From the IMG/VR virus record IMGVR_UViG_3300045119_000430, positions 1-60,619 of that record: a stretch of DNA of 60,619 nucleotides. One strand, written 5' to 3'. The first letter of the stretch is position 1. Every line of letters begins with the position of its first letter. This stretch comes from a virus (lineage: Duplodnaviria > Caudoviricetes). The notes beneath the pieces are model-generated. The model was not told where the DNA came from. It saw only the letters and a program-made list of their open reading frames with translations, and searched no databases. A program made the translations under genes and the position numbers. Positions 11,012-60,619 of this stretch are shown here, in pieces.

Positions 11012-12388
11012 GTGGGCGTCCCTGCGGGGATAGAATTCCTGGCTCAGTTCGAATCCCTGGAGGCGTTCGACGCGCAGTTTGACACGGCCGATGAGGCAGC
11101 CGCCGCGCGCCGAGAGATCGCGGACGCCTGGCGCTGGGTCGCCCGCCCCGAGCAGCTCGAGCCCGCGAACGACAACCGAAGCCAGTGGCTTACATGGCTG
11201 ATCCTCGCCGGCCGAGGCTGGGGAAAGAGCCGCGTAGGCGCCGAGACGATCCTAAATTGGATCATCACGGGCCAATGCCGGCGGGTGGCCCTCGTCGCCC
11301 CGACATCGGCCGACGCTCGCGATGTCATGGTCGAGGGCGAGTCCGGGATCCTGGCTTGCTCGGAGCGCGCGCAGTTCCCGGGCCGGTACGAGCCGTCTAA
11401 GCGTCGGATCACGTGGCCGAACGGCGCGATCGCCACCCTGTACTCGGCCCAAGAGCCGGATCGTCTCCGCGGCCCCCAGCATGATGGGGCGTGGGCGGAC
11501 GAACTAGCCGCCTGGCACAACCCGCAGGCCGTCTGGGATCAGCTTCAATTTGGGCTGCGCCTAGGTCTTCACCCGCGGACTATCGTCACCACGACGCCCC
11601 GACCGCTGCCCATCATCAAGGCGCTGATCAAGGATCCTTCGGTCGCCATCACGAAGGGATCGACCTTCGACAATGCGCCCAACCTGGCAGCGTCGTTCCT
11701 GCGCGCCATCCGCAACGCCTACGAAGGTACACGCCTCGGCCGCCAAGAACTGAACGCCGAGATCCTGGACGACAACCCCGGCGCCCTCTGGCGGCAGGCG
11801 ATGATAGACGCCCTGCGCGTTCAGACAGCGCCGATGGAGATGCAGCGGATAGCCATCGCCATCGATCCTGCCGTCACCGCCAACGAGGACAGCGATCTCA
11901 CCGGCATGGTGTCGGGCGGCCGCGCGCCGTGCCGCATGCTACCGGCCTGCAAGGGGGAGGTTCACGCCTTCGTCTTCGACGATGAGTCGGGCATCTATAC
12001 CCCGTCCGAGTGGGCCAAGAAGGCCTGCACGACCTACCATGCCCGCCGAGCCGACCGGGTGATCGGCGAGGTTAACAACGGCGGTGACCTCGTGGAGGCC
12101 AATCTCCGCGCCAACGGAGACGCCACGGTCAGCTACCGGGCCGTCCACGCCTCCCGGGGAAAGATCATTCGAGCCGAGCCGATCGCCGCCCTCTACGAAC
12201 AGGGGAAGGTCCACCACGTCGGAACCCACGGCAAGCTCGAGGACGAGATGACCCAGTGGGACCCGCTCGCGGGGATGAGGAGTCCCAGCCGCATGGACGC
12301 CCTGGTCTGGCTGCTGACCGACCTGATGCTCGGGGAGGCCCGCGTCGGCGGCGCGCCCCGCGTACCGGGTGCTGGGCGCCGTATTTGA
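11012..12388 (+). CDS. terL: terminase large subunit
   Basis: Walker A AGRGWGKS, RGPQHDGAWADE, TTTP, nuclease IAIDPA..RMDALVW. Confidence 0.96.
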   Translation: MGVPAGIEFLAQFESLEAFDAQFDTADEAAAARREIADAWRWVARPEQLEPANDNRSQWLTWLILAGRGWGKSRVGAETILNWIITGQCRRVALVAPTSADARDVMVEGESGILACSERAQFPGRYEPSKRRITWPNGAIATLYSAQEPDRLRGPQHDGAWADELAAWHNPQAVWDQLQFGLRLGLHPRTIVTTTPRPLPIIKALIKDPSVAITKGSTFDNAPNLAASFLRAIRNAYEGTRLGRQELNAEILDDNPGALWRQAMIDALRVQTAPMEMQRIAIAIDPAVTANEDSDLTGMVSGGRAPCRMLPACKGEVHAFVFDDESGIYTPSEWAKKACTTYHARRADRVIGEVNNGGDLVEANLRANGDATVSYRAVHASRGKIIRAEPIAALYEQGKVHHVGTHGKLEDEMTQWDPLAGMRSPSRMDALVWLLTDLMLGEARVGGAPRVPGAGRRI

Positions 12389-12413
12389 GGGTAGGCGGGA
12401 TATCCCCCACGCT
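12385..12413 (+). promoter_or_regulatory. late promoter TTGAGG-N17-CACGCT with GGGATATCCC in the spacer (portal)
   Basis: 6 nt before in-frame GTG 12420. Confidence 0.65.
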
Positions 12414-12419
12414 CGCTCC

Positions 12420-14642
12420 GTGACCCCAGGAATGAAGGCGCGGGCGGCGACTCTTCGAACGCAGCTGCGCCAACTCCCAACGCAGAGCCTGATCGACCCC
12501 GACGACATCGGCGACATTATCGGGATCATGCGGCATCTCCGTCAGGGGACGCTGCGAGACGCCGCGCTTCTCTGCGACGCCATCGAGGGCGACGACCGCA
12601 TCAAGGCCGTGCAGGAGACGCGGGTAGGAAGTCTTCGGGCGACGTCGTTGAACGTGAAGCCGGCCGCCGACCGGTCATTGCTCGATTTGACCGATGGCGA
12701 AGAGCCGAAGCCCGACGCCGAACGGACGAAGCTCACGCAGCAACTGGCCCAGCAACTCGGCGGGGTCGACGACGTGCCGGGCGAGTGGGACCGCATCTTT
12801 CCTCCTGGCGTGATCGGCGACCTGTGTCGATGGGGGACTCTGCTGGGCATCGGCGTTGCCGAACAGATCTACCCGCAGTCCAAGCCGCCGTGGATACCTC
12901 GTCTGAAGATCTGGCACCCGCAGTTCATTCGTTGGGACTGGGCGCGCGACTGCTACCGCATCTTGACGGCGGATGGCGAGATCGATCTCCCTCGTCTCGA
13001 CGAGAACCCAAACGGCGACGGCCGCTGGCTGATGTGGTGCCCCTACGGCTACCGCGAGGGATTCAAGCGGGGGCTGATCCGCGCGATGGGCAAGCTCTAC
13101 GTGATGCGCCAGTGGGACGAGCGGGATTGGGCTCGCTGGAACGAGACCAAGGGACTCGGGATCGTCAAGGCGATCATGCCGATGACCGAGAACGAGGAGG
13201 TCGACCAGCAGTTCCTCAACGACATTTCGAATCGCGGCTCAGAGGCGGTGATCGCCGTCCGCAAGGGCGAAGAAGGCAACCAGTACGACATCGAGAACGT
13301 GTCCGACTCGGCCGGCGGCGAGGGATGGAAGTCGTTCCAGGAGTTCAAGCGGGCGCTCGACGTGGACATCGCAGTCCTCTGGCTCGGCCAGAACCTCACG
13401 ACCGAGAGCCCGTCGAACGGGTCGAGCTCCAAGTCGCTCGGCGAGGTCCAGCGCGCGACGAGCCTGGATCGCCTCAAGGTTGACGCTGGGATTGCGACCG
13501 CCGCCTACGACCAGGTGATCGTGCCGATGACGACCATGAACTACGGCGATCCGACGCTGGCCCCGCTGCCCGTCTACGTCACCGAGCCGCCGAAGGATCA
13601 ACTCGCCGAGGCGACGGCCATGAAGATGACCGGCGACGGCGTCACGGCTCTGAAAGGCGCTGGAATCCCGGTCGACGAGCGGGCGATCGGCGAAGACTTC
13701 GGCGTGCCGATGAAGACCGAAGAGCAAGCCGCCGCCGAGAAGGCCATCGCCGACGAGGAAGCCGCCGCGAAGATGCAGGCCCAGCGCGACCTCATGGGCC
13801 AGCAAAACGACACCCCGCCGAGCGCCGAGCAAGACCGGGCCAACCCGTCGGGCAAGGCAGCCCTGCGCGCAACGACGCCCGCGGCCTACCCACGCCGCAC
13901 CTTCGCTGGCCTTCCGGTCGCGATCGAGCACGCCGCCGGCACCACGCGAATCTGGCGCGACGCCGGCCCGAACGGTCAGACGATCGGCTCCACGAAGATG
14001 CTCCACGACTACGGGTTCATCGAGGGCCACATGGGGGCCGACGGCGAGGAGCTCGACGTCTACCTCGGGCCCGACGAGAACGCACCGAACGTCCACGTCA
14101 TCCACCAGAACAAGGCGCCCGACTACAAGTCCTACGACGAGGACAAGACGATGCTCGGCTTCGCCGGCGCCGACGAGGCCAAGGCCGCTTACATGGCTCA
14201 CCGGAACGACGGCGACCGGGCTATCCGCGGCATGTCGTCGATGCCTCTCGACCGCTTCAAGGCCAAGCTGAAGCGACGCACAGGGACCGGTCCGGTACGC
14301 GCCTCGGCGGTCGACGTGGACCGCACTACCGCAGCCCTGGTGGCCCTGGCGAGCAAGGCGGCGGTGAAGCCGCGCAAGGGGAAGGCATGCGACGCCGACC
14401 GCCTCACGGCCAACGCAACCCGCCTGGCGTCACGAGCGCTGGCGCCATACGTGACGGGCGTGCGCGGCCTGCTCGATGGCTTGGCGGACCACCCCGACCC
14501 GTTCGGTGAACTGAAAAAGCGCTTGGTCACCCACTACCGCAAGGCCGACCCGTCTCGGCTCGCAACGGTGGTGGAGCGCACGCGGGTGATGGCGCACATG
14601 GCCGGGCGGGCCGATGTCCACGCGGAGCACAGGTCGGCGTGA
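12420..14642 (+). CDS. Mu gp29-like (DUF935) portal protein with inserted inorganic-pyrophosphatase-like domain
   Basis: Follows terL; WLGQNLTTE..LGEVQ motif; insert DYGFIEG..GADGEELDVYLGP..YDEDKTMLGF at ~13902-14275. Confidence 0.85.
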   Translation: MTPGMKARAATLRTQLRQLPTQSLIDPDDIGDIIGIMRHLRQGTLRDAALLCDAIEGDDRIKAVQETRVGSLRATSLNVKPAADRSLLDLTDGEEPKPDAERTKLTQQLAQQLGGVDDVPGEWDRIFPPGVIGDLCRWGTLLGIGVAEQIYPQSKPPWIPRLKIWHPQFIRWDWARDCYRILTADGEIDLPRLDENPNGDGRWLMWCPYGYREGFKRGLIRAMGKLYVMRQWDERDWARWNETKGLGIVKAIMPMTENEEVDQQFLNDISNRGSEAVIAVRKGEEGNQYDIENVSDSAGGEGWKSFQEFKRALDVDIAVLWLGQNLTTESPSNGSSSKSLGEVQRATSLDRLKVDAGIATAAYDQVIVPMTTMNYGDPTLAPLPVYVTEPPKDQLAEATAMKMTGDGVTALKGAGIPVDERAIGEDFGVPMKTEEQAAAEKAIADEEAAAKMQAQRDLMGQQNDTPPSAEQDRANPSGKAALRATTPAAYPRRTFAGLPVAIEHAAGTTRIWRDAGPNGQTIGSTKMLHDYGFIEGHMGADGEELDVYLGPDENAPNVHVIHQNKAPDYKSYDEDKTMLGFAGADEAKAAYMAHRNDGDRAIRGMSSMPLDRFKAKLKRRTGTGPVRASAVDVDRTTAALVALASKAAVKPRKGKACDADRLTANATRLASRALAPYVTGVRGLLDGLADHPDPFGELKKRLVTHYRKADPSRLATVVERTRVMAHMAGRADVHAEHRSA

Positions 14643-53309: not shown

Positions 53310-53737
53310 CCAGATCCCAGCTCGGCAACGCCTTGGCCATCGCGCTCTTCGCAACCATCGACAATCAAGGGAAATATGATCTGGATCAGGCCGGCGCAAC
53401 GTTCGCTCTCGCACTTGATCGTCTCGCTAAGCTCAGAAGAAAACGAGCCCGAGCCAAATCGATCCCCGATCCGCGCGACATCCGCTGGCGGTCAGTGGTC
53501 GAGCCGATCGCGGCCGAATATGGGCTCACGGTTGAAGAACTCCGCGCCCGACGGCGGAGCCCACACCTTGTTGTAGCCCGCAATGAAGCGATCTGGCGAC
53601 TGAGGCAATTGCAGCCGCCGATGAGCTATCCCGAGATCGCCAGGGCCGTGGGGCTGGCCAACCATACGTCGGCGCTCCATGGATTCAGGGTCTACGCCGC
53701 ACGTCTCGCCCGCGAGGCCGAGAATAAGGCCGCATGA
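53306..53737 (+). CDS. DnaA domain IV-like HTH protein
   Basis: YGLTVEELRARRRSPHLVVARNEAIWRL..SYPEIARAVGLANHTSALHG. Confidence 0.75.
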   Translation: MTRSQLGNALAIALFATIDNQGKYDLDQAGATFALALDRLAKLRRKRARAKSIPDPRDIRWRSVVEPIAAEYGLTVEELRARRRSPHLVVARNEAIWRLRQLQPPMSYPEIARAVGLANHTSALHGFRVYAARLAREAENKAA

Positions 53738-54276
53738 AGCCGCTCAACTCCGTCACCATCGCCAACCGCCGTCTCGGCCTCCTACGTCTCTACGAACGTA
53801 AGCGCATCGAGCAGGGGCTTCCGCCAGGCCCGATCGAGCGACCAGCGCCGACGACGCTGCCGAACAGCCGCCGCCTATCGGACGCCGAGATCGCCGCCGC
53901 CGTCGAGCCATTCCCGGATGTCGAGCGACCGAGAACGCGCGGAGAGTGCCGGGACGCCCCACGCCCTTGCCCGTGGTCATCCTGCAGGCATCACAACGCC
54001 TTCGAGGTCAGCCAGATCGGATCGCTCACTCCGGCGTTCCCTGGTGTCGAGCCATGGGAGATCCCCGAGACGTGTTCCCTCGATGCCGCAGACCGCGGGG
54101 GCATGACGCTCGAAGAGGTCGGCACCATACTGAACCTCACTCGCGAATGCATCCGCCAGACCGAAGATCGGGCGCTCCGCAAGATGAAGGCCGCCGGTGT
54201 CGACGTCCTAGGACCCCCGTCTGAGCACCCGATCGGGAACTACTGGAACACTGGCGGCGGCGACTCCCGCGACTGA
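53734..54276 (+). CDS. sigma-70 region-4-like HTH protein with Cys/His metal site
   Basis: RPRTRGEC..PCPWSSCRHH..ETCSLD..GMTLEEVGTILNLTRECIRQTE. Confidence 0.78.
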   Translation: MKPLNSVTIANRRLGLLRLYERKRIEQGLPPGPIERPAPTTLPNSRRLSDAEIAAAVEPFPDVERPRTRGECRDAPRPCPWSSCRHHNAFEVSQIGSLTPAFPGVEPWEIPETCSLDAADRGGMTLEEVGTILNLTRECIRQTEDRALRKMKAAGVDVLGPPSEHPIGNYWNTGGGDSRD

Positions 54277-54838: not shown

Positions 54839-55804
54839 ATGCAGCAGCTGGAGTTGAGGGGGATCGCGGAAGGCAGGTTGAGAGAATCGATAATGTGGTT
54901 GCTGGCTCATGAGTGCGACGGGGTAAGGGAGGAGACCTTGTTGCGGGACTACCAGGTCCGGGCGGATTGGTGCTTGCGCACCTTCGGAGATTGCCGCCTC
55001 GTGGAGTTGTGTGGGCGCAACGGCTACGAATGGATGCGCAGGGTGATCGCATCGAACAAGTCGAGCGACGAGCGGATGAAAAACGTCTCGATTAAGAAGC
55101 GGCTCCAGTTCCTGATCCGCGTGCTCAAGGTAGCAGCGAATCGAGAGTTCATCGTCCGGTCATCAATTCCGGAACTGCCACAGATCGCGAACGACGGTGT
55201 GCCAAAAGAGGCGTTCCACACCTACGATCAGTACAGGCGATTTCGATCCGCCCTTCCGTCGGGGCGCCATCGCATCTACACCGACCTCGGCTGGTGGACC
55301 GGCATGCGACGAGAGGACTTGGAGTCCACGCTAAAAGAACAGGTTGACCCGTGGCGGCCGTTCGTCGATGAGGCCGGCAAGACGATCTCGGTCGGCTGCT
55401 TCTGGGTCAGAAACCATAAGCGGCGCGATTTCCAGTCCTACTGGATCCCGATGGAGGCTGAATTTAGGGCGTGTGTGAAGGAGTTTTACGAGCAGCACCC
55501 AATGGCAGATGGCGACCTGATCACGGGCAAATTCTCGAAGCCATCGCGCTGGATGGATCCTGCTTCGCAGCGATCTGGAACGCCGCGGATAACGCCGCAC
55601 TGCTGGCGCCGCTCCCGGCAGACCTACCTTGAGACTATCGGGGTTGCGCTGAGCGACATCATGTATGCCCTGGGTTCGGCCAGTGTGGCAGTGAGCAAGA
55701 GGCACTATCTGAAGCCAACGCCGTCTACCCTGAGACGATTGATTCCCAGGTCCGTACCGACGGAAGACGGGCTGCCAGACCTCCCCGAGATGGGCATGGC
55801 GTAA
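54839..55804 (+). CDS. int: tyrosine recombinase/integrase
   Basis: WWTGMRR, TPHCWRR, ALGS..RHY; the second His/Trp position is Ser. Confidence 0.85.
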   Translation: MQQLELRGIAEGRLRESIMWLLAHECDGVREETLLRDYQVRADWCLRTFGDCRLVELCGRNGYEWMRRVIASNKSSDERMKNVSIKKRLQFLIRVLKVAANREFIVRSSIPELPQIANDGVPKEAFHTYDQYRRFRSALPSGRHRIYTDLGWWTGMRREDLESTLKEQVDPWRPFVDEAGKTISVGCFWVRNHKRRDFQSYWIPMEAEFRACVKEFYEQHPMADGDLITGKFSKPSRWMDPASQRSGTPRITPHCWRRSRQTYLETIGVALSDIMYALGSASVAVSKRHYLKPTPSTLRRLIPRSVPTEDGLPDLPEMGMA

Positions 55805-55873
55805 AAATACGTGTTGACTATTTCGGCGCACTCTGGCTTTTCTCTTGATTGCCTACTCTCATGATTTACCGCT

Positions 55874-55991
55874 CGTCGATCAGCCAGGAATCCTCTTCAG
55901 CCCCGCGACCGAGGGTAGGCCATCGTGGAAACGCGGTGTCTTCGCGAGCCGAGCTGGAGGGGGGCCCTGGCCGGGCGACGCCCGTTTTTTT
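55874..55991 (+). ncRNA. candidate rod-shaped structured RNA ending in hairpin plus T7 tract
   Basis: Nested complementary blocks with G-U pairs and a GAAA tetraloop; terminator-like CGGGC-GAC-GCCCG-TTTTTTT. Confidence 0.5.
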
Positions 55992-56009
55992 ACAGTAGAG
56001 GAGAACCGC

Positions 56010-56384
56010 ATGCGTCCACGGCCTTCTAAGCCGCACGGCTCAAGTTTTCCAGCGGAGCCCCTGGCTCCCTCGCCTAACTGGATAAGGCACCGACCTTCTA
56101 AGTCGGCATCATCCGGGTTCGAGTCCCGGGGGAGCCACTGGCGAAAGTGGCGCCTCGTCGCCGCGCTCTTCGCGTTGGCTGGCATCGCAACGGCCTGCAC
56201 TTCGAGCACGGCCTTCGGACCATGCGTCGGCATCTCCGACGACCGCGACCCATCGCTCACCTACAAGGTCAGCGCCGGTAACATCTTCCTGGCGATCGTC
56301 TTCTCGGAGACGATCATCGTCCCGGTCGTCGTCATCGCTGACGAGGTGGCGTGCCCGGTCGGGCGGAAGGCGGTGTCCCCGTGA
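56010..56384 (+). CDS. putative lipoprotein; ORF spans the tRNA
   Basis: RBS AGAGGAG 6 nt before ATG; signal RLVAALFALAGIATAC; mature CTSSTAFGPCVG..ETIIVP..CPVG. Confidence 0.6.
   Translation: MRPRPSKPHGSSFPAEPLAPSPNWIRHRPSKSASSGFESRGSHWRKWRLVAALFALAGIATACTSSTAFGPCVGISDDRDPSLTYKVSAGNIFLAIVFSETIIVPVVVIADEVACPVGRKAVSP
56063..56137 (+). tRNA. tRNA-Arg (UCU), CCA not encoded
   Basis: Acceptor GGCTCCC/GGGAGCC, D-arm GCC..GGC, anticodon arm CCGAC-CTTCTAA-GTCGG, T-arm CCGGG-TTCGAGT-CCCGG. Confidence 0.92.
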
Positions 56385-56828
56385 CCCGCTGGCTCGTCCT
56401 CTGGTGCGGATTGGCCATGGCTGCCGCGGTCGCTGGGACCTTCCTGGCGTTCCTGATCGAGCGGCCCGATCTCCTTCGGCGGGCGGTCTCGCATGCGGTC
56501 CCGCGGGCTGACGGAGGTGTGCGGTGAGGCCATCGGTCGGCTCAGCGGTCACGCGCATCATGGCGGCGGTTCTGGGCGCCGGTGGCGCCGCCTTGGGCGC
56601 ATCGTCGATCACACGGCGGGGCGCGCCCTGGGGCCGCGGGAGCAACGGCGGTCAGCGGGACCTGATGTACGCGCTCCGTCACCGCAAGATGCGGGACTGG
56701 GAGGCGCTGCGGGCTCAGGCGGCGGCGCACCCGCTGGCCGAGAAGGCGCCGAAGGGCGCGCTCCGACTGATCCTTCGGCAGGCGCGCAACAAGGCCAAGA
56801 AGGCGCGGCAGCTCACGAGGAGGCCGCA

Positions 56829-57422
56829 ATGAGCGTCCTGGCTGGCGATGCGGCTCCATTCGAGGCGTTCCCCTCTATCCCGCGCCTGTTCCGCGAATGC
56901 TGGATTACGGAGAAGCTAGACGGAACAAACGCTCAGGTCTACGTCTCCGAATCGGGCGTAGTTCTGGCTGGTTCTCGTAGTCGTTGGATCACGCCCGAAA
57001 ACGACAACCATGGCTTCGCCCGCTGGGTTGTTGATCACGAGGACGAGTTGCGCCAGTTCGGTCCGGGGCGGCACTTCGGCGAATGGTGGGGCAGCGGGAT
57101 TCAGCGCGGGTATGGATTGAAGGAGAAGCGCTTTTCGCTTTTCAACACGGGCCGCTGGGGCGTCGAGCGCGACCACGTCAAGCACCCCGTCGACCGCCCG
57201 GCGTGCTGCGACGTCGTTCCGGTGCTCTATCGGGGCGCGTTCCTGACCACGGTGGCTGACAACGTTCTCGCGCGCCTCGACCGCGAGGGCAGCACGGCGG
57301 CGCCGGGATTCATGAAGCCCGAAGGCATCGTTGTCTACCTCCCGGCCGCTCACCAGACCTTCAAGGTCACGCTCGGCGGCGACGGGCACAAGACGGCGAA
57401 GCCAGCCGAGGTCGCGCTATGA
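56829..57422 (+). CDS. RNA ligase (Rnl2-like adenylyltransferase domain)
   Basis: ITEKLDGTN, FGEWWGSGIQ, FSLFN, VPVLYRG, PEGIVV. Confidence 0.85.
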   Translation: MSVLAGDAAPFEAFPSIPRLFRECWITEKLDGTNAQVYVSESGVVLAGSRSRWITPENDNHGFARWVVDHEDELRQFGPGRHFGEWWGSGIQRGYGLKEKRFSLFNTGRWGVERDHVKHPVDRPACCDVVPVLYRGAFLTTVADNVLARLDREGSTAAPGFMKPEGIVVYLPAAHQTFKVTLGGDGHKTAKPAEVAL

Positions 57423-59223: not shown

Positions 59224-59622
59224 AGAACCCGAAACGGACCCGGGCCGAGCGCGAGCGGCTGGGCCGTCAGTTCGCGGAATGGATGATGTTGCCGATCATC
59301 AGCCGAGCCGCGGGCGACGCCGGCCTTCAAGGCGATGCTCGCCTGTCGGCGGCGCTGGGCGAGATCGAGACGATCTCGGATCTCCATCACCTGCTCGGCA
59401 AGTCTCGGTGGCCACGCGCTCGGAGGTCCGCATGAACCACCGCCGATTCCATCCCCGCCGAGGTCAACCATTGCCACCGCGCATCGTTCAAGAGTACGGC
59501 GCCGACCAGGTCCGACACGCCCAGCTGCTCGACGCGCTCATGCGCCAGGGTCTAGGGCTGCACGATCTAACGGAGTTGATCGACCTTCGGGTCCGCACGG
59601 GCCGGGCACGGAGGGCGGCAAC

Positions 59623-60619
59623 GTGAGGTCACCGACCTTTCGCGGTTATCTCGCTGACAACGAGCTCGTCGTCGACAACTTCGCCGGCGGGGGTGGAGCG
59701 TCGACGGGGATCGAAGTCGGCCTCGGTGGCAATCGATCGCCCGACATCGCGATCAACCATTCGGCCGCCGCGATCGCGATGCATCGGGCGAACCATCCGA
59801 ACACCCACCACTTCTGCGAGGACATCTTCGACGTCGACCCGACCGAAGCGTGCGCCGGGCGTCCGGTCGGCCTGGCGTGGTTCTCGCCCGACTGCAAACA
59901 CTTCTCGAAGGCGAAGGGGACCGCGCCGCGCGACCAGGGGATCCGTGGCCTGGCCTGGGTGGTGATCCGCTGGGCGAAGGCGGTCAAGCCGCGCGTGATC
60001 TTCCTCGAGAACGTCGAGGAATTCGCCACCTGGGGGCCATTGGGCGACGACGGCCGGCCCGACCCGACGAAGCTCGGCGACACGTTCCGCGAATGGTTGG
60101 CGGCTTTGGTCGATTGCGGTTACCGCGTCGAGCACCGCCTGCTCGTCGCCGCCGATTACGGCACGCCGACCACGCGCAAACGGCTGTTTCTGATCGCCCG
60201 CTGCGACGGCGCGCCGATCGTCTGGCCCGACGCGACGCACGGACGAGGGCGCGCGACTCCGCACCGGCCAGCGTCAGAGATCATCGACTGGGCGCTTCCG
60301 TGCCCGTCGATCTTCTCGCGGAGCCGTCCGCTGGCGCCCGCGACGCTGAAGCGGATCGCGGCCGGGATTCGTCGGTACGTGATCGAGGCCGCTAACCCAT
60401 TCATCATGCCCGTGACCCATCAGGGGGGAGATCGCGGCAACGCGATCGGCGAACCGCTGCGCACGGTGACGGCGGCGCACCGGGGCGAGCTCGCGTTGAT
60501 CTCGCCGTTCATCGCCCCCGCGAAGACCTGGGGCGGGGGCGGCAACGGACCTCGATCGATCGAAGAGCCGATGCGGACAGTGACCCCGTCGAAGCGTGGT
60601 GAATTCGCGGTGATCGAAC
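59623..60619 (+). CDS. C5 cytosine DNA methyltransferase, N-terminal part (continues at position 128 onward via the overlap)
   Basis: VDNFAGGGGASTG (I), WFSPDCKHFSKAKG (IV), FLENVEEF (VI), TTRKRLFLIAR (VIII). Confidence 0.93.
   Translation, partial: MRSPTFRGYLADNELVVDNFAGGGGASTGIEVGLGGNRSPDIAINHSAAAIAMHRANHPNTHHFCEDIFDVDPTEACAGRPVGLAWFSPDCKHFSKAKGTAPRDQGIRGLAWVVIRWAKAVKPRVIFLENVEEFATWGPLGDDGRPDPTKLGDTFREWLAALVDCGYRVEHRLLVAADYGTPTTRKRLFLIARCDGAPIVWPDATHGRGRATPHRPASEIIDWALPCPSIFSRSRPLAPATLKRIAAGIRRYVIEAANPFIMPVTHQGGDRGNAIGEPLRTVTAAHRGELALISPFIAPAKTWGGGGNGPRSIEEPMRTVTPSKRGEFAVIE
60493..60619. repeat. 127-bp terminal direct repeat (copy of 1-127)
   Basis: Exact identity to window start. Confidence 0.97.

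Follow-up and report, generated by a model that had tools for sequence, protein, structure and literature searches.

Does an intact tRNA gene that lies in frame within the open reading frame (ORF) of a small lipoprotein form part of one dual-purpose unit, or have two neighbouring genes run together? The question is raised by a locus at 56010-56384 in a virus record of 60,619 bases, the whole of which was analysed and is referred to below as the window. We examined the tRNA, the open frame around it, the lipoprotein family and the upstream integrase region.

The window represents the whole virus record, which has direct terminal repeats, a rating of 100% complete and a GC content of ca. 65%. 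Its two ends overlap exactly over 127 nt, which suggests a circular short-read assembly. The genome encodes a T4-type large terminase, a Mu-type portal, a tail-sheath-like DUF2586 protein, a baseplate J protein, a tape measure protein and RecT, and we read it as a temperate tailed phage from soil with a contractile tail (myovirus). An identity as an actinophage was considered and rejected, because the top cultured relatives of the terminase, which are phages of Microcystis and Brevundimonas, are only 52% identical and the nearest Atlas clusters of the integrase are spread over several phyla. Elsewhere in the genome, the portal protein (12369-14642) bears a C-terminal inorganic pyrophosphatase-like domain (PF18823, E = 1.4e-28), a sigma-70 region-4 protein (53734-54276) is encoded ca. 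560 nt upstream of the integrase, and an ORF for a C-5 cytosine DNA methylase (PF00145) at 59335-60618 reaches the window end, while another frame is open from base 1 (1-813).

A Logan contig from run X1, which probably represents the source sample, served as an independent assembly of the locus and showed 0 differences over 55500-57000 at a depth of 7.5. A second soil sample, X2, likewise gave 0 differences over 56215-56497 and 56523-56971, with a coverage that excludes the tRNA junction (none at 55500-56214). No match to 55800-56600 was obtained with blastn against 50,697 phage records, no integrase detectable as a close relative was found in IMG/VR, and the exact 22-mer of the tRNA 3' end is absent from IMG/VR. 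A look for RNA runs that contain the stretch likewise gave none. The elements from the integrase to the tRNA are as follows, with the basis of each given in brackets.

54839-55804, + strand: tyrosine integrase, 321 aa as listed, with the Atlas record starting at residue 19 (PHROG, ESM Atlas)
55841-55866, + strand: two direct 10-nt repeats, TCTCTTGATT and TCTCATGATT (k = 10 scan, one mismatch allowed)
55972-55991, + strand: terminator-like hairpin (55972-55984) with a run of seven T behind it (55985-55991), the whole ending 6 nt upstream of the ribosome-binding site (RBS)
55998-56012, + strand: Shine-Dalgarno (SD) sequence GAGGAG (55998-56003), 6-nt spacer and ATG (56010-56012) (sequence, SD + start scan)
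56004-56062, + strand: decayed 3' part of a tRNA-Arg(UCU), from D-loop to discriminator, which holds ATG 56010 (alignment)
56019-56033, + strand: anticodon-stem-loop-like hairpin CGGC / CTTCTAA / GCCG, candidate attP common core
56063-56137, + strand: tRNA-Arg(UCU) with a canonical cloverleaf and discriminator A, CCA not encoded
56134-56151, + strand: perfect 6-bp hairpin GCCACT-GGCGAA-AGTGGC (sequence, present in the MFE fold)

ARAGORN identified a single tRNA in the whole window, Arg(tct) at 56063-56138 on the + strand, and the Rfam model RF00005 matched over its full length (model positions 1-71) with 56.1 bits as compared to a gathering score of 29 (E = 3.2e-11). All stems are Watson-Crick paired (acceptor 7 bp, D 4 bp, anticodon 5 bp, T 5 bp), the T-loop reads TTCGAGT, and the length of 75 nt is a multiple of three. 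The preliminary description of this locus had named an intact tRNA-Arg(UCU) at 56063-56137, and both programs agree with it as a predicted gene. AGA accounts for 31 of the 1116 Arg codons in the gene-like ORFs of the window.

The frame of ATG 56010 contains no stop codon between 55818, directly after a stop at 55815-55817, and the stop at 56382-56384. Before the lipobox Cys codon (56196-56198), the only in-frame ATG, GTG or TTG codons are TTG 55845, ATG 56010 and TTG 56175, of which the last lies within the hydrophobic core of the signal peptide, so that a start there leaves no lipobox-type signal peptide. The anatomy that had been described at the outset was borne out in every part: a strong RBS (GAGGAG at 55998-56003 with a 6-nt spacer) precedes ATG 56010 upstream of the tRNA, a single frame runs from this ATG through the cloverleaf to 56384, and there is no in-frame ATG, GTG or TTG from the end of the tRNA to the signal-peptide core, inside which the next one, TTG 56175, is located.

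Such continuity can also arise by chance. Since only one of the three frames through the tRNA is free of stops, the chance of an open frame is 1/3. A scan of both strands of the 60.6-kb window for AGGAG or GGAGG followed by 4-9 nt and a start codon recovered 102 sites, 75 of them with no gene-like ORF after the start. This sets the background to at most 0.00062 per nt per strand, and an in-frame SD and start within 145-294 nt upstream is therefore expected with a likelihood of ~0.03-0.06. We estimate the joint chance of an open frame and an in-frame SD + ATG at ~0.01-0.02, a low value, yet one that has to be reckoned with when the feature comes from a large scan. It is also low enough (~1-2%) to leave room for selection for read-through, which counts against an accident. 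As for expression signals, one terminator-like site was found as compared to 0.8 expected in shuffled sequences, and a crude scan identified no sigma-70 promoter between the terminator-like hairpin and the RBS. The RBS is paired with 56042-56048 in the MFE fold, and the fold of 55965-56200 is no more stable than those of shuffled sequences (z = -1.0).

Downstream of the tRNA, the ORF consists of the following segments.

56139-56198, + strand: signal-peptide part with WRKWR, a hydrophobic core and the lipobox IATAC, Cys codon at 56196-56198 (lipobox match, GC3)
56147-56150, + strand: GTGG, with GTG 56147-56149 one base out of frame and TGG 56148-56150 in frame (alignment)
56175-56177, + strand: TTG, the start of the database gene call P0001 (69 aa), which truncates the signal peptide and has no SD
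56199-56384, + strand: mature small phage lipoprotein and stop codon (homology, GC3, profile search)

The lipoprotein is 65% identical to the database protein P0002 (E = 3.7e-22) and 53-59% identical to its homologues at the nearest phage loci (L002, L003, L007). A profile search against 1.84 billion representatives recovered 810 cluster representatives of the family at E <= 0.001. We also collected loci for the family by homologue searches with the residues from 56139 onwards, which gave 3 viral, 2 genomic and 24 metagenomic loci. One of these (L008) is on the same contig as L003 and was counted once, and two loci beside RNA ligase genes (L031, L039) were added, resulting in 30 distinct loci with GC contents of 28 to 63%. 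Judged by these homologies, the lipoprotein family is real and widespread in phages. No such family is present in Pfam or PHROG, and the AlphaFold model of the protein (mean pLDDT 76.4) had no match in BFVD at E <= 0.001. Its Atlas neighbours are solely unnamed viral clusters; a match to YceK/YidQ at 0.81 is below the trusted level and was not retained.

At the family position, a canonical start codon is found in all 30 distinct loci (29 ATG and, in L006, one GTG), and a short signal peptide of the MKK type comes after it. In an alignment of 22 sequences, the Met of each of the 21 homologues falls on TGG 56148-56150 of the window, 10 nt after the tRNA. Lipobox signal peptides follow a PROSITE-like pattern, [LIVMFWSTAG](2)-[LIVMFYSTAGCQ]-[AGS]-C with six uncharged residues before it, with the Cys within residues 15-35 of the start and K or R among the first seven residues. 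The window sequence LFALAGIATAC matches this pattern, as do all of the 21 homologues, in which the Cys is found at residues 16-23; this Cys is invariant in the alignment. Counted from ATG 56010, the Cys of the window is residue 63 and falls outside the range of 15-35. Only from the family position, where there is no start codon, does it fall within that range, as residue 17. The mature part conserves every invariant position of the family, including C..G...YK...N...F.ETIIVP...CP. The preliminary description had also considered that the lipoprotein might be a start-less pseudogene; the family start position reads TGG, and the mature part is intact with all conserved positions kept. The hairpin at 56134-56151 spans from the 3' end of the tRNA acceptor to the position of the lost start, and the extra G behind the out-of-frame GTG 56147 is a base of its stem.

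It had further been proposed that the overlap be sought in related phages. A tRNA was found in or against the gene at none of the 30 distinct homologous loci. The nearest case is a tRNA-His / tRNA-Arg(tct) pair upstream of one family member (L025, 2017-2298), encoded on the opposite (-) strand at 1158-1317, at a distance of ca. 700 nt. This tRNA-Arg(tct) is not closely related to that of the window, and we treated it as a coincidence rather than as a parallel case. Among the best 150 of the 810 cluster representatives, 10 have a match that starts more than 20 residues into the protein; the family start corresponds to Met in 6 of these and to Val or Leu in 4, which is consistent with over-long gene calls, to judge from the protein sequences on their own. 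One protein of 388 aa (P0028) ends in a member of the family and contains VVGSNPAAP and VVGSIPAAP, which are in-frame readings of a tRNA T arm (GGTTCGAAT/ATTCC). Going by the amino acids alone, the gene call is probably too long and runs through two tRNA genes that precede the family member.

If the segment upstream of the family start were an old part of the gene, it would be expected to look like one. The fraction of codons with G or C in the third position (GC3) was 9/17 for 56010-56062 (from the ATG through the tRNA fragment), 17/25 for the codons within the tRNA, 17/20 for the signal-peptide part and 55/61 for the mature part, as compared to 76% to 87% for other phage genes. Coding-type GC3 values set in only at the 3' end of the tRNA. 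Residues 1-64, with the 43-residue extension included, are common to no protein of 68-217 residues among 5.8 billion. Taken together, these two results are good evidence for a gene that, over the long term, has started downstream of the tRNA. Against a recent use of ATG 56010 they are weak evidence, because the tRNA sequence constrains itself.

The lipoprotein gene is tied to the next two genes by GTGA start/stop overlaps, and the genes downstream are as follows.

56381-56527, + strand: 48-aa hydrophobic protein with a GTG start overlapping the lipoprotein stop (GTGA) (weak match to phrog_3487, E = 0.0059)
56524-56832, + strand: 102-aa protein with no family assigned, with an SD and a GTG start overlapping the preceding stop (ORF list, SD scan)
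56829-57422, + strand: RNA ligase, 197 aa (PF09414, E = 1.8e-15; phrog_548, E = 1e-30)

The two most similar RNA ligases in IMG/VR, with 66% and 64% identity (L039, 3986-4788, and L031, 3974-5308), have a member of the lipoprotein family just downstream, and in L039 the ligase and lipoprotein genes overlap, start to stop. This pairing was seen at only 2 of the 80 ligase loci examined.

The reason for the presence of the tRNA may lie on its upstream side. The segment 56004-56062 is colinear with the 3' 62 nt of the intact tRNA (56076-56137), with 40 identical positions in the 66 columns of a global alignment, a score that was reached by none of 5000 shuffled sequences and by none of 2044 other segments of the window. 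The likeness extends 5 nt beyond the 3' ends (GGAGCC-C-CTGGC versus GGAGCC-A-CTGGC). Rfam did not call the fragment as a tRNA at E <= 1. The T arm is lost, and the anticodon stem-loop is the best preserved and only intact part: its hairpin CGGC-CTTCTAA-GCCG is identical to CGAC-CTTCTAA-GTCG of the tRNA at 13 of 15 positions, the two differences represent one compensating pair (A-T to G-C), and the UCU anticodon loop is present in both copies. The 9-mer CCTTCTAAG at 56022-56030 recurs without change at 56094-56102, within the tRNA. Taken alone, the 15-nt hairpin match is modestly unusual, being reached by 20 of 2000 shuffled sequences and 17 of 822 window segments. ATG 56010 is aligned with ATA of the tRNA D-loop.

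Directly upstream, the integrase matches phrog_1 (integrase, E = 1e-16) and phrog_216 (E = 2e-08), and PF00589 is found on its feature and structure neighbours in the ESM Atlas; hmmscan against Pfam gave nothing at E <= 0.01. The gene is followed by an AT-richer spacer (GC 0.43-0.57), the terminator-like hairpin, the RBS, the decayed fragment and the intact tRNA, in this order. The two 10-nt repeats in the spacer are possible arm-type integrase sites, which we give as a lead only. An 18-nt near-palindromic repeat with 83% identity between its copies was observed at 55722-55739 (the 3' end of the integrase gene) and at 56297-56314 (the IVFSETII motif, in the most conserved part of the lipoprotein) and is probably due to chance.

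A similar arrangement has been described for tRNA-dependent lysogeny in the actinobacteriophages Fionnbharth, LeBron, Gaia and others (Guerrero-Bustamante and Hatfull, mBio 2024, PMC10865867). As described there, a tyrosine integrase joins attP to a host tRNA gene via a core of 8-17 bp; this leaves the host tRNA unrestored, and the loss is made good by a phage-encoded tRNA of matching isotype, which in Gaia is located downstream of int. Cores in the anticodon loop are described there as common in mycobacteriophages, and the strategy is suggested to be perhaps widespread. The window resembles these phages, on the phage side alone, in having a tyrosine integrase, a short tRNA-derived candidate core near int and a phage tRNA close by. 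It differs from the tRNA-dependent cases in Table 2 of PMC10865867, which include only Lys-TTT, Ile2-CAT and Leu-CAA, in that the isotype is Arg-UCU. It also differs from the phages described there in having a 59-nt colinear relic and a tRNA that abuts an ORF, and in that it is not necessarily an actinophage. By analogy with these phages, the 9-mer at 56022-56030 is a candidate attP core, and we infer that integrase, fragment and intact tRNA make up an attP region with a complementing phage tRNA. Two results speak against this reading: no prophage copy was found, and the search of IMG/VR gave no close relatives of the integrase.

In contrast, classical attP cores carry the 3' half of the host tRNA (Islander database, PMC4383910) and rebuild it, with lengths of 43 bp in Boilgate and 44 bp in Omega (PMC10865867). 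The window shares with these a 3' tRNA fragment beside a tyrosine integrase gene and differs in that the T arm is lost and an intact tRNA follows the fragment. Moreover, ARAGORN called the intact control as a tRNA but, at three thresholds, found none in a proxy junction of an intact 5' half and the 3' part of the fragment, in which the phage's own tRNA was used in place of that of the host. The phage-side fit to tRNA-dependent lysogeny consists of the 9-bp identity in the anticodon loop, the decay of the T arm and the failure of the proxy junction to be called as a tRNA; the identity of the host target would follow by inference from the phage tRNA. The phage would then use the short core to recombine within the anticodon loop of a host tRNA-Arg(UCU) gene, and because the fragment appears unable to rebuild the host tRNA, the phage tRNA of the same isotype would compensate.

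We propose that two separate genes probably adjoin in the window, that the lipoprotein has lost its start, and that the nesting is a by-product, an accidental continuity of frame. The anatomy, the family start position, the absent coding signature of the extension and its absent conservation are all directly observed. The start would have been lost by a one-base insertion or by a change from TTG to TGG, and the tRNA would be stop-free in the lipoprotein frame by chance, with the result that the ORF reaches back to the SD and ATG in the decayed fragment. As the decayed fragment and the integrase adjoin, the tRNA has an ordinary reason for its presence.

The upstream half of this proposal could be replaced by a simpler one, in which the tRNA is an ordinary phage tRNA that supplies AGA decoding or evades a tRNA-targeting defence, while the fragment is a meaningless partial tandem duplication with no role in integration. 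The 31 AGA codons give a UCU tRNA some use, an RNA ligase is encoded three genes downstream, and attB is not known. Against this, the tRNA is the sole one of the genome, it is placed directly after the integrase with a 3'-type fragment between the two, which is the place of the attP core in the phages of PMC10865867, and the fragment retains the anticodon hairpin rather than the T arm. We consider this reading possible but unlikely, and it would leave the lipoprotein part of our proposal as it is. That part would change if the protein still started near the family position, from a near-cognate codon, by a +1 shift from GTG 56147, or because a one-base error or a minority variant underlies the sequence. 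GTG 56147 lies one base out of frame right beside the family start column; with GTG followed by CGC at this position the product would begin M-R-LVAALFALAGIATAC, and with one G fewer the signal peptide would have its Cys at residue 17, as compared to residues 16-23 in the homologues. On the other hand, two assemblies agree with 0 differences at a depth of 7.5 (the 127-nt overlap suggests a short-read assembly), no recognisable slippery site was seen, the SD-like GGGGGAG is distant, with its end 12 nt upstream of the GTG, and 56139-56174 contains no in-frame ATG, GTG or TTG. Such a non-standard start is in our view improbable.

If the lipoprotein is still made as a lipoprotein from a canonical codon, its start would be ATG 56010, which ribosomes would be expected to use if a transcript carries it. 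We give such salvage translation a little under an even chance. The likelihood of only ~0.03-0.06 for an SD + ATG by chance, the GTGA overlaps and the mature part, which is intact and identical in X2, speak in its favour, and continued use fits better than decay because the start codon is the sole lesion, the body is intact and the gene is present in a second sample. Speaking against it are the terminator-like hairpin that ends 6 nt before the RBS with no promoter between, the paired RBS in the MFE fold and the atypical length of the signal peptide, with the Cys at residue 63. A crossover at 56022-56030 would in addition part ATG 56010 from the lipoprotein gene in a lysogen. If this ATG is used, maturation of the tRNA, by RNase P and at the 3' end, would cut it off from the body of the ORF. 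Somewhat further below even, and still a serious prospect, we place a relic that is silent or gives a truncated product from TTG 56175. An evolved dual-use transcript, in which translation from ATG 56010 is set against tRNA processing as a sensor of translation capacity, was the reading offered in the preliminary description. Its anatomical premise, that no canonical start other than ATG 56010 preserves the signal peptide, was found to be correct, and the SD and ATG, the open frame, the 75-nt tRNA with its length in multiples of three and the intact lipoprotein body can be cited in its favour. The switch itself gained no support: the family start is located directly after the tRNA, no coding signature is seen upstream of 56139, a tRNA in the gene occurs at 0 of 30 distinct loci, the extension is common to no database protein, and the integrase context explains the presence of the tRNA. 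Nor did the blastn (50,697 phage records) and IMG/VR searches recover close phage relatives that would show persistence. We regard an evolved switch as very improbable, and count its share within that of salvage translation.

Under salvage translation, the extension need not harm the protein. Signal peptidase II cuts lipoproteins from their leader, and here it would remove a leader of 62 residues, including the 43 residues from fragment and tRNA; because the whole leader would be cut off, the mature protein would bear no cost from the tRNA-coded peptide. A signal peptide of 62 residues is not absurd, since signal peptides of 50-60 residues, which are removed, exist in autotransporters with N-terminal extensions. 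Those extensions are conserved, unlike the one in the window, which is a translated tRNA with no homologue. In a more specific form, only the unintegrated genome would give rise to the lipoprotein, through ribosomes that translate across the tRNA, each transcript yielding either tRNA or lipoprotein. The start would lie beyond the attP crossover and the tRNA, the tRNA-coded peptide would be discarded with the signal peptide, and integration would silence the lipoprotein and put the tRNA under the host tRNA promoter. We see this as something of a long shot. A bolder form still, in which the excised tRNA leaves a leader with a 3'-OH and a trailer with a 5'-phosphate that are rejoined in frame by the phage RNA ligase, is extremely improbable.

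Known systems offer partial parallels. The thrU-tyrU-glyT-thrT-tufB operon of E. coli yields a tRNA-mRNA co-transcript in which the ORF starts after the tRNA. As in this operon, tRNA and protein gene are on the same strand in the window with almost no spacer, and tRNA processing would release the mRNA; unlike in the operon, no canonical start is left after the tRNA. In the integration-dependent immunity of mycobacteriophages and in the integrase gene of SSV1, a gene spans attP and integration changes or splits its product. The spanning ORF of the window is putative and, unlike in these systems, would have a whole tRNA between start codon and body (integration-dependent immunity is named in PMC4929511). 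The Patience phage paper (PMC4324244) was set aside as not relevant, as its pertinent sections concern ORFs embedded in genes rather than tRNAs. Word searches of open-access full texts, which were not exhaustive, recovered no ORF translated through an intact tRNA gene in a bacterium or phage, and the salvage reading, if true, would be new. If ATG 56010 is used, this would be the first intact tRNA gene of a bacterium or phage to be translated within a protein precursor, so far as open-access text shows, and the expression of the lipoprotein would be tied to the integration state. For annotation, the locus serves as a warning, as the database call takes the first start after the tRNA (TTG 56175) and yields a product that lacks the signal peptide. 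For the biology of the phage, the locus represents a candidate for tRNA-dependent lysogeny in which Arg-UCU would be a new isotype, and the phage, an uncultured myovirus from soil, may infect hosts outside the Actinobacteria.
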